Source of the DNA: Candidatus Poribacteria bacterium
GTDB taxonomy: Bacteria > Poribacteria > WGA-4E > WGA-3G
NCBI GenBank assembly: GCA_963663765.2
Contig: CAXXUA010000005.1
Span: forward strand, 320,001 to 384,000
Direction: 5' to 3'
Length of the DNA: 64,000 bases
Positions 22,087-22,461 of this stretch are shown one piece after another; the first letter of the stretch is position 1, and each line of letters opens with the position of its first letter. The translations under genes were made by a program, and so were the position numbers. The notes under the pieces are model-generated. The model saw only the letters and a program-made list of their open reading frames with translations. It was not told the DNA's origin and did not search any database.

Positions 22087-22461
22087 TTATTCAGGTTTCC
22101 GCGCGCCATATTTGGAACGTCCTTGGCGACGGTTTTCAACACCAGCGGTGTCTAATTTTCCACGAACAATGTGGTAACGCACGTTTGATAAATCTTTTAC
22201 TCTTCCGCCACGCACTAAAACCTGTGAGTGTTCCTGCAAATTGTGATCAATACCTGGAATATAGCAGGTCGCTTCATCAGAAGACGAAGAAAACCGGACA
22301 CGCGCTACTTTCCGTAAAGCTGAGTTCGGCTTATTCGGTGTTACTGTCTTCACCTGTAAGCAGATACCTCTACGCTGCGGACACTGCTGCAGTATCGGGG
22401 ATTTCGTCTTTTTACGATATTTTTTACGCGGTTTTTTGATTAACTGATTGATTGTCGGCAT
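22087..22461 (-). CDS. rpsL: 30S ribosomal protein S12 (non-canonical decoding loops)
   Basis: [29 protein letters not shown]. Confidence 0.98.

Follow-up and report, generated by a model that had tools for sequence, protein, structure and literature searches.

Asn42, Ser90 and Asn91 in ribosomal protein S12 and an altered 16S rRNA pocket suggest natural streptomycin insensitivity in Poribacteria

Results

The rpsL locus and the str operon

We characterized the rpsL gene in the window, i.e., the whole 64,000-nucleotide stretch of Candidatus Poribacteria DNA analysed here (assembly GCA_963663765.2, contig CAXXUA010000005.1, positions 320,001 to 384,000). Positions are counted from the first letter of the window, and the features are as follows:

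22087..22461, minus strand: rpsL, ribosomal protein uS12 (124 aa; stop codon inside the coordinates)
22333..22335, minus strand: Asn codon AAT at the E. coli K42 site (TPNKPNSA), from translation and alignment
22183..22188, minus strand: Ser-Asn codons TCA AAC at the E. coli P90-G91 sites (KDLSNVRY), from translation and alignment
22273..22290, minus strand: loop SSSSDE, from alignment with E. coli and relatives
21516..21986, minus strand: rpsG (S7), TIGR01029, 208.1 bits
19335..21440, minus strand: fusA (EF-G), TIGR00484, 1078 bits
17965..19164, minus strand: tuf (EF-Tu), TIGR00485, 719.8 bits
22635..22663, minus strand: sigma-70 type promoter, TTGACA-17-TATAAT, 12/12 consensus matches
22462..22628, minus strand: 5' leader of about 170 nt (~167 nt), from alignment of 23 distinct genus leaders
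22505..22521, minus strand: terminator-like hairpin (7 pairs, 4 of them G-C) with a T-run, ~44 nt before the rpsL ATG

The start of rpsL was set at ATG 22461 by homology (the list of open reading frames has GTG 22467), and the S12 proteins of all relatives read start with MPTINQL. The product matched TIGR00981 over residues 1-123 with 200.5 bits (cut-off, 112.95) and PF00164 with 117.2 bits, and its identity to the rpsL product of E. coli K-12 (NC_000913) was 59% by BLASTP. This alignment pairs Asn, Ser and Asn of the window protein with E. coli K43, P91 and G92 when Met is counted, which are K42, P90 and G91 in the mature numbering used below; the codons are AAT (22335..22333), TCA (22188..22186) and AAC (22185..22183). 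The substitutions K42N, P90S and G91N had been proposed in a first-pass annotation, and both the residues and their coordinates proved exact by minus-strand translation and BLASTP against E. coli S12. The three closest solved S12 chains all have TPKKPNSA and KDLPGVRY. Compared with E. coli and these chains, the rest of the decoding loops is canonical at P41, K43, P44, N45, S46 and A47, and also at K87, D88, L89, V92, R93 and Y94. The SSSSDE loop is one residue longer than TNGF-E of E. coli and TTGYE of other poribacterial genera.

The best match to the RimO model TIGR01125 in the genome (G000:C13:185377-186654; locus L035, 1492..2805) scored 273 bits, below the cut-off of 357, and was rejected as RimO; it is MtaB by NCBIfam (440 bits). 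Since RimO was not found in the genome, Asp88 of S12 is probably without methylthiolation in this organism.

The rpsL gene is the first gene of rpsL-rpsG-fusA-tuf on one strand, that is, a classical str operon; its earlier designation as the str-operon copy is borne out by S7, EF-G and EF-Tu encoded downstream on the same strand. The promoter also agrees with the sigma-70 consensus at 12 of 12 positions, as had been annotated, but the terminator-like hairpin lies between this promoter and rpsL. The promoter is conserved in the loci of the genus, and so is the leader sequence among the 23 distinct genus leaders. The hairpin was retained in 23/23 of them, with a both-sided change at one pair in two sequences. 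An Rfam search of the leader gave no match at E<=1, and its fold was no stabler than those of shuffled sequences (z-score -0.55); it could act as an attenuator or be of the ribosomal-protein type. Directly upstream of the promoter, a 319-aa open reading frame (22665..23624, minus strand) had no NCBIfam match at E<=1e-5. In addition, EF-Tu (17965..19164) has GGRWNPFF where the closest solved EF-Tu (6i8r) has GGRHTPFF, and a second substitution lies in the counterpart of the 6i8r motif REGGRTVGAG. Both affect motifs that are otherwise highly conserved in this further decoding partner.

Copy number and independent support for the codons

The genome assembly is 6.35 Mb in 15 contigs, with 97.8% completeness and 2.57% contamination. 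A PF00164 search of the whole assembly matched the window gene alone, so that no second rpsL was found, and hence none of the canonical type against which the first-pass annotation had cautioned. Contigs from four public runs, one from each of four independent studies, span positions 22180-22454; RNA libraries account for two of the runs. Across these contigs, the N42 codon (22333-22335) showed zero differences, and the sole difference in the S90 and N91 codons was 22186 T>G, which turns TCA into TCC, a synonymous Ser codon. The codons thus give the same residues in contigs of four runs from four studies, and sequencing error is excluded as the cause of K42N, P90S and G91N. The runs holding the stretch include sponge metagenomes and metatranscriptomes. 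Note that rpsL contigs in RNA libraries are consistent with expression but are not proof of it.

Unusual residues could also stem from faulty assembly or binning, from a pseudogene, or from a divergent second gene accompanying a canonical rpsL. No support was found for such an artefact in this assembly, with its 15 contigs and 2.57% contamination. Evidence against it comes from the single PF00164 match in the genome, the intact reading frame with a score far above the TIGR00981 cut-off and the canonical operon context, as well as from identical residues both in 37/37 S12-bearing genomes of the genus, several of them single-contig, and, at positions 42, 90 and 91, in the contigs of the four studies. 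We therefore regard an artefact as having a practically negligible probability.

Distribution of S12 states in Poribacteria

The phylum draw comprised 151 poribacterial genomes, 148 of which had an S12 match. The DNA pattern for N42 was detected in 71 of the 151, all belonging to the family of the window genome (f1), with the following distribution:

g1 (genus of the window genome): 36/37 genomes, plus the window genome
g9: 31/57 genomes (31/56 of those with S12; one without S12 match)
g11: 1/1
g12: 2/2
g10: 0/2
Eight other families: 0/51

When only S12-bearing genomes are counted, N42 was present in 37/37 of g1, the sole miss being a genome without any S12 match, and 23 other g1 genomes that were read have TPNKPNSA and KDLSNVRY like the window genome. 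In g9, 14 loci were translated among the 25 genomes with S12 but without N42; eight of the 14 genomes carry R42 together with R87 and A90 (TPRKPNSA, GGKVRDLANVRY), and six carry K42 with S90 and N91. S42 (codon AGT) was read in the two g10 genomes and T42 in G074, which belongs to another family, and family f2 combines K42 with N40. All poribacterial S12 proteins read in the phylum draw have N91, down to those of the deepest relatives (f8 and f9), which have APKKPNSA with K/RDLSNVRY, and position 90 is S, P or A. The idea that the three changes are fixed among relatives thus holds phylum-wide for N91 and widely for S90, whereas N42 is fixed in the genus but confined to one family; the three did not arise as one event.

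Among 65 distinct poribacterial-type S12 proteins, position 42 is K in 32, N in 23, R in seven, S in two and T in one, and positions 85 (R/K/N/A), 87 (K/R) and 90 vary as well. Note that N91 in 65/65 of these proteins is not an independent result, since the set was chosen by the motif DL[SAP]NV. Three S12 relatives from metagenomes (P0065, P0073 and P0084) have K42I (PPIKPNSA) with RDLAN or RDLSN, and Ile would bring the states at position 42 to six in poribacteria-like S12.

The residues are encoded by varied codons, with AAC at 81 and AAT at five loci for N42, all four TCN codons for S90, and AAC at 60 and AAT at 70 loci for N91 (these tallies are of loci, and some genomes entered twice). 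Such synonymous codon turnover indicates long maintenance of the residues. Chance is excluded as their cause, since N42, S90 and N91 are genus-wide and encoded by synonymous codons across the loci. On a maximum-likelihood 16S tree of 32 poribacterial genomes, N42 occurs in g11, g12, g1 and part of g9. N42 is likely ancestral to family f1, with later changes to other states, a polarity drawn from a tree that is poorly resolved inside g9.

We also inspected the 120 best database relatives of S12, a set that favours proteins sharing words with the query and gives no frequencies. A90 was always accompanied by R87 in this set (RDLAN, 22; KDLAN, 0), and R42 occurred with RDLAN in nine of 10 cases, which points to coupling between S12 positions 42, 87 and 90. 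Most of the 120 carry x-N at 90-91; those with names are listed as Poribacteria or 'bacterium', and a single 1.8-kb contig as Zixibacteria, whereas the P-G forms with names are from Clostridia or Firmicutes.

The 16S rRNA side of the streptomycin pocket

The window genome has a single 16S gene (G000:C4:576451-578001), which was compared together with 31 other poribacterial genes to E. coli rrsH, with the following results:

Position 13: A in 32/32
Pair 18-917: A-U, not C-G, in 32/32
Positions 20/915: C/G, not U/A, in 31/32 (the exception is the deepest relative, G042)
Pseudoknot pair 505-526: A-U in 23/32, including the window genome
Pair 505-526: G.U in 3/32 (family f2)
Pair 505-526: G.A in 3/32 (both S42 genomes of g10 and one R42 genome)
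Pair 505-526: G-C in 3/32
A1408, A1492 and A1493: 32/32

In the Rfam bacterial SSU consensus, C18, U20, G505, C526, A915 and G917 are upper-case, i.e., highly conserved, and the window 16S deviates from the consensus at all of these positions (18, 20, 505, 526, 915 and 917). It is canonical at C912, A913, A914, G527 and G530, as well as in helix 44 (A1408, C1409-G1491, A1492 and A1493). Inspection of helices 18, 27 and 44 for compensatory changes had been suggested earlier; pocket positions in helices 1, 18 and 27 are indeed changed, whereas helix 44 is canonical. Because helix 44 and the decoding nucleotides are unchanged, the expected insensitivity is narrowed to streptomycin, and the sites of 2-deoxystreptamine aminoglycosides in helix 44 appear to be unchanged. 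Of the 'aminoglycoside-insensitive' decoding centre proposed in the first-pass annotation, then, the streptomycin part may stand as a prediction, and the extension to other aminoglycosides does not, in view of the canonical helix 44. Poribacteria that retain K42 (e.g., G069) share the same rRNA pocket, so whatever effect the rRNA changes have does not depend on N42; N42 would be an added layer and not the core of the change.

Apart from these positions, family f5 (class-level relatives; L195-L197, corresponding to G108, G046 and G044) has A1409/U1491, not C1409/G1491, in helix 44, and G534, not U534, is found in the 530 loop of genus g1, G074 (L193) and the f5 genus g15. The genomes with the G505.A526 mismatch (G105, G051 and G054; L180, L182 and L183) are all S42 or R42, a sample that is too small to be called covariation.

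Rarity outside the phylum

The N42 pattern was then scanned in one genome each for 185,579 species. The 102 matches listed comprise 61 poribacterial-type S12, 14 other S12 and 27 non-S12 sequences. Among these matches, the 61 poribacterial-type proteins have N42 with x-N91, and the 14 other S12 proteins all have P/T-G at 90-91. The other N42 carriers among the matches listed are three Anaerolineae MAGs, one Chloroflexia MAG, one Saccharibacteria MAG, Streptomyces aureus NRRL B-1941, Nocardia inohanensis, a gammaproteobacterial MAG, an alphaproteobacterial MAG and five more.

As controls, S12 region 85-94 was read in draws of 61 genomes each from Bacteroidota and Chloroflexota. K87, P90 and G91 were conserved in 54/54 S12 proteins of Bacteroidota (54 genomes with a match; one further match was not S12). 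In Chloroflexota, with 49 matching genomes, 36/49 S12 proteins were canonical and 13/49 were variant at 87, 90 or 91 (K87P, four; K87R, three; P90S, one; G91S, four; P90G, one), and N91 was absent from the 49 S12 proteins read. One canonical Chloroflexota genome (G335) is unpublished, and its omission leaves the result unchanged. The variation in Chloroflexota indicates that the 'classic' positions 87, 90 and 91 are not invariant in nature. Among the genomes sampled, the combination of changes and its phylum-wide extent are special to Poribacteria. For position 42, a control in Pseudomonadota yielded no counts, since the 20-base pattern was too short and gave many chance matches. The four Chloroflexota genomes with K87P (G318, G330, G354 and G305) are small (1.4-1.7 Mb) and read G-R-V-P-D-L-P-G, and four other Chloroflexota genomes have P-S at 90-91.

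Discussion

Comparison with known streptomycin resistance determinants

Lys42 is reportedly the protein contact in the Thermus 30S-streptomycin structure. On the RNA side, Powers and Noller are said to have shown in 1991 that wobble pairs in the 505-507/524-526 pseudoknot lead to resistance, and mutations at positions 13 and 915 reportedly lowered streptomycin binding in work of the Brakier-Gingras laboratory. C517 of M. tuberculosis corresponds to C526 of E. coli. C526 and G527 are contacted by streptomycin, the helix 18 mutation C517U confers resistance on M. tuberculosis, and the pseudoknotted helix 18 is a binding site for uS12 as well as for RsmG (PMC10525438). Loss of RsmG as a resistance route was rejected for this organism, because rsmG is present in its genome.

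In S12, a curated panel of resistance alleles comprises, with Met counted, 43R/N/T, 86C, 88R/E, 91L and 92D, of which 43N, 43R, 43T and 88R are described as high-confidence alleles in a preprint (bioRxiv 10.64898/2026.06.09.731231). The window S12 carries the panel allele 43N; 91L and 92D are not in it, the residues there being Ser and Asn. The earlier reading in terms of established alleles is thus right for K42N, which is known for resistance and hyperaccuracy, and fails for Ser90 and Asn91, which are not alleles studied in E. coli or Thermus. According to the same preprint, panel alleles occur in 7.57% of 15,721 species, almost all of them being 88R or 43R, and anything else was found in only seven of the 15,721 (bioRxiv 10.64898/2026.06.09.731231). 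The word 'Poribacteria' is absent from its main text, and the supplements might list more (bioRxiv 10.64898/2026.06.09.731231).

The poribacterial N42 matches that of K42N (strA-type) laboratory mutants of E. coli and Salmonella in both residue and position within the PNSA loop. Unlike in these mutants, where a single recent mutation sits in a canonical ribosome, it is fixed in about 70 sampled poribacterial species and is accompanied by S90 and N91, by the extended loop and by the altered 16S pocket. A closer parallel in extent is offered by clades with intrinsic 88R or 43R, in which resistance-type S12 residues are likewise inherited clade-wide. The preprint names Planctomycetia, Sphingomonadales, Rickettsiales/Wolbachia, Devosiaceae and Coriobacteriia, with intrinsic streptomycin resistance being a prediction there (bioRxiv 10.64898/2026.06.09.731231). 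Whereas these clades have R at 88 or 43, the lineage of the window genome has N42 with co-varying positions, and the preprint's rrs panel (523C, 885A, 912G and 913G) is without the poribacterial 16S changes (bioRxiv 10.64898/2026.06.09.731231).

The rRNA changes resemble resistance mutations of the 530 pseudoknot and the 915 region, in that poribacterial 526 is U or A with G915 and A13, and they resemble the pseudoknot wobble mutants, in that 505-526 is a weaker pair (A-U, G.U or G.A). They differ from such mutants in being natural, phylum-wide and mostly compensated (A505-U526; C20 with G915). As for P90 and G91, these are highly conserved sites of streptomycin dependence adjoining helix 44, and P90 defects are suppressed by changes of K42, as reported in a study of Thermus thermophilus (PMC3884664). 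Poribacteria are similar to the P90 mutants described there in having P90/G91 substitutions next to helix 44 and in the coupling of K42 to P90, but Thermus P90L and P90W and E. coli G91 alleles are conditional-lethal, whereas poribacterial Ser90 and Asn91 are viable natural residues (PMC3884664).

A stepwise remodelled pocket

It is reasonably probable, in our judgement, that the streptomycin pocket has been remodelled stepwise and lineage-wide, giving insensitivity at the level of the target. The S12 changes would be the protein half of a pocket formed between S12 and 16S helices 1, 18, 27 and 44. Remodelling may have involved phylum-wide N91 with 16S A13 and A18-U917, the replacement of U20/A915 by C20/G915 in all but the deepest relative, the change of the 505-526 pair to A-U, G.U or G.A in most members, and the spread of S90. 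The replacement of Lys42 would be a later step, to N in one family, with R or S in some genomes, and to T in one genome of another family. Without Lys42, and with U526, G915 and A13, poor streptomycin binding is expected; the contacts presumably lost are Lys42 on the protein side and C526 and the 913-915 backbone on the RNA side. The ribosome of the window genome is thus probably naturally insensitive to streptomycin, as read from its sequence, and most of the phylum should bind the drug poorly, to different degrees. That K42N, P90S and G91N are inherited and selectively maintained traits of the lineage is part of this reading, and we hold it to be somewhat favoured by the data. The kind of trait is already known from intrinsic rpsL/rrs target-site variants, while a fixed K42N with a co-varying pocket is undescribed in the literature searched. 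That literature, searched for both topics, gave no prior account of a poribacterial rpsL or streptomycin trait.

Decoding kinetics are probably shifted, given that N42 is restrictive in enterobacteria, but would be co-adapted with the altered rRNA; net fidelity, and hyperaccuracy from N42 in particular, cannot be predicted in so different a context. The effect of Ser90 and Asn91 may be nil. That position 42 shows five states (K, N, R, S and T) is as compatible with relaxed constraint as with selection. Causes compatible with the data are a pocket-binding compound, co-adaptation of S12 to the altered rRNA, and tuning of fidelity. A self-made streptomycin-like compound was considered and rejected, with weak force, on the lack of a PF02274 amidinotransferase-family gene, one family searched in one genome.

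S12 may instead have tracked a divergent 16S, with which K42 and K87 make contact, by neutral or compensatory co-evolution. The S12 changes would then be phenotypically silent, fidelity would be ordinary, and an effect on streptomycin would either be lacking or have arisen without selection for it. In favour of this, the rRNA changes predate N42 and extend more widely, and relatives with K42 have the same rRNA pocket. In addition, the pairing of A90 with R87 and of R42 with RDLAN shows that positions within S12 are coupled epistatically, changes of K42 are known to suppress P90 defects from within the protein (PMC3884664), and Chloroflexota too vary at 87, 90 and 91. However, the varied sites are exactly five panel positions (43, 86, 88, 91 and 92, with Met counted) plus 16S 13, 20/915 and 526, and the states at position 42 comprise all three classic resistance alleles (N, R and T). 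Moreover, K42N and C526U change the drug response in other species whatever their origin. We consider silent co-evolution a possible but rather doubtful account.

A further explanation is that N42 was selected for a restrictive, slower and more accurate ribosome in a slow-growing sponge symbiont, insensitivity to streptomycin being incidental. K42R is non-restrictive in E. coli, and the same family also has forms with R42 and R87, as well as reversion-like K42 forms, with no evident common accuracy denominator. The presence of both restrictive-type (N and T) and non-restrictive-type (R) residues speaks somewhat against pure fidelity tuning. On the other side, N42 is restricted to one family, the lineage is found in sponge metagenomes and metatranscriptomes, and K42N reduces UGA readthrough in Salmonella (PMC8872077). 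On this evidence, selection for accuracy appears quite improbable as the cause of N42.

Implications

One could imagine a long arms race at this single ribosomal drug site in the sponge holobiont, driven by a streptomycin-class or other pocket-binding compound. Such a history would be reflected in the repeated replacement of Lys42 (by N, R, S and T, and by I in relatives), in K87R, the changes at R85 and P90S/A, and in U or A replacing C526 within the 16S loop that is conserved most strongly. We think an arms race unlikely; were it true, an undiscovered producer would exist in sponge microbiomes, and streptomycin could enrich these uncultivated symbionts. Streptomycin as a selective agent is suggested as a handle for cultivation, and it already serves as one for planctomycetes.

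Whatever its cause, the phylum offers a natural series of decoding-centre variants in which S12 and rRNA change together, and which is usable to study the mutual constraint of K42, K87, P90/G91 and the 530 and 915 regions. K42N is usually met in the laboratory or the clinic as a mutation that carries a cost, yet a large clade can have it as a stable ancestral state, and this bears on how 'resistance mutations' are read in metagenomic resistome surveys. Finally, the poribacterial 16S changes presumably lie where commonly used 16S primers anneal. Such an overlap would fit the finding that extended V4 primers detect Poribacteria better (PMC13271367).
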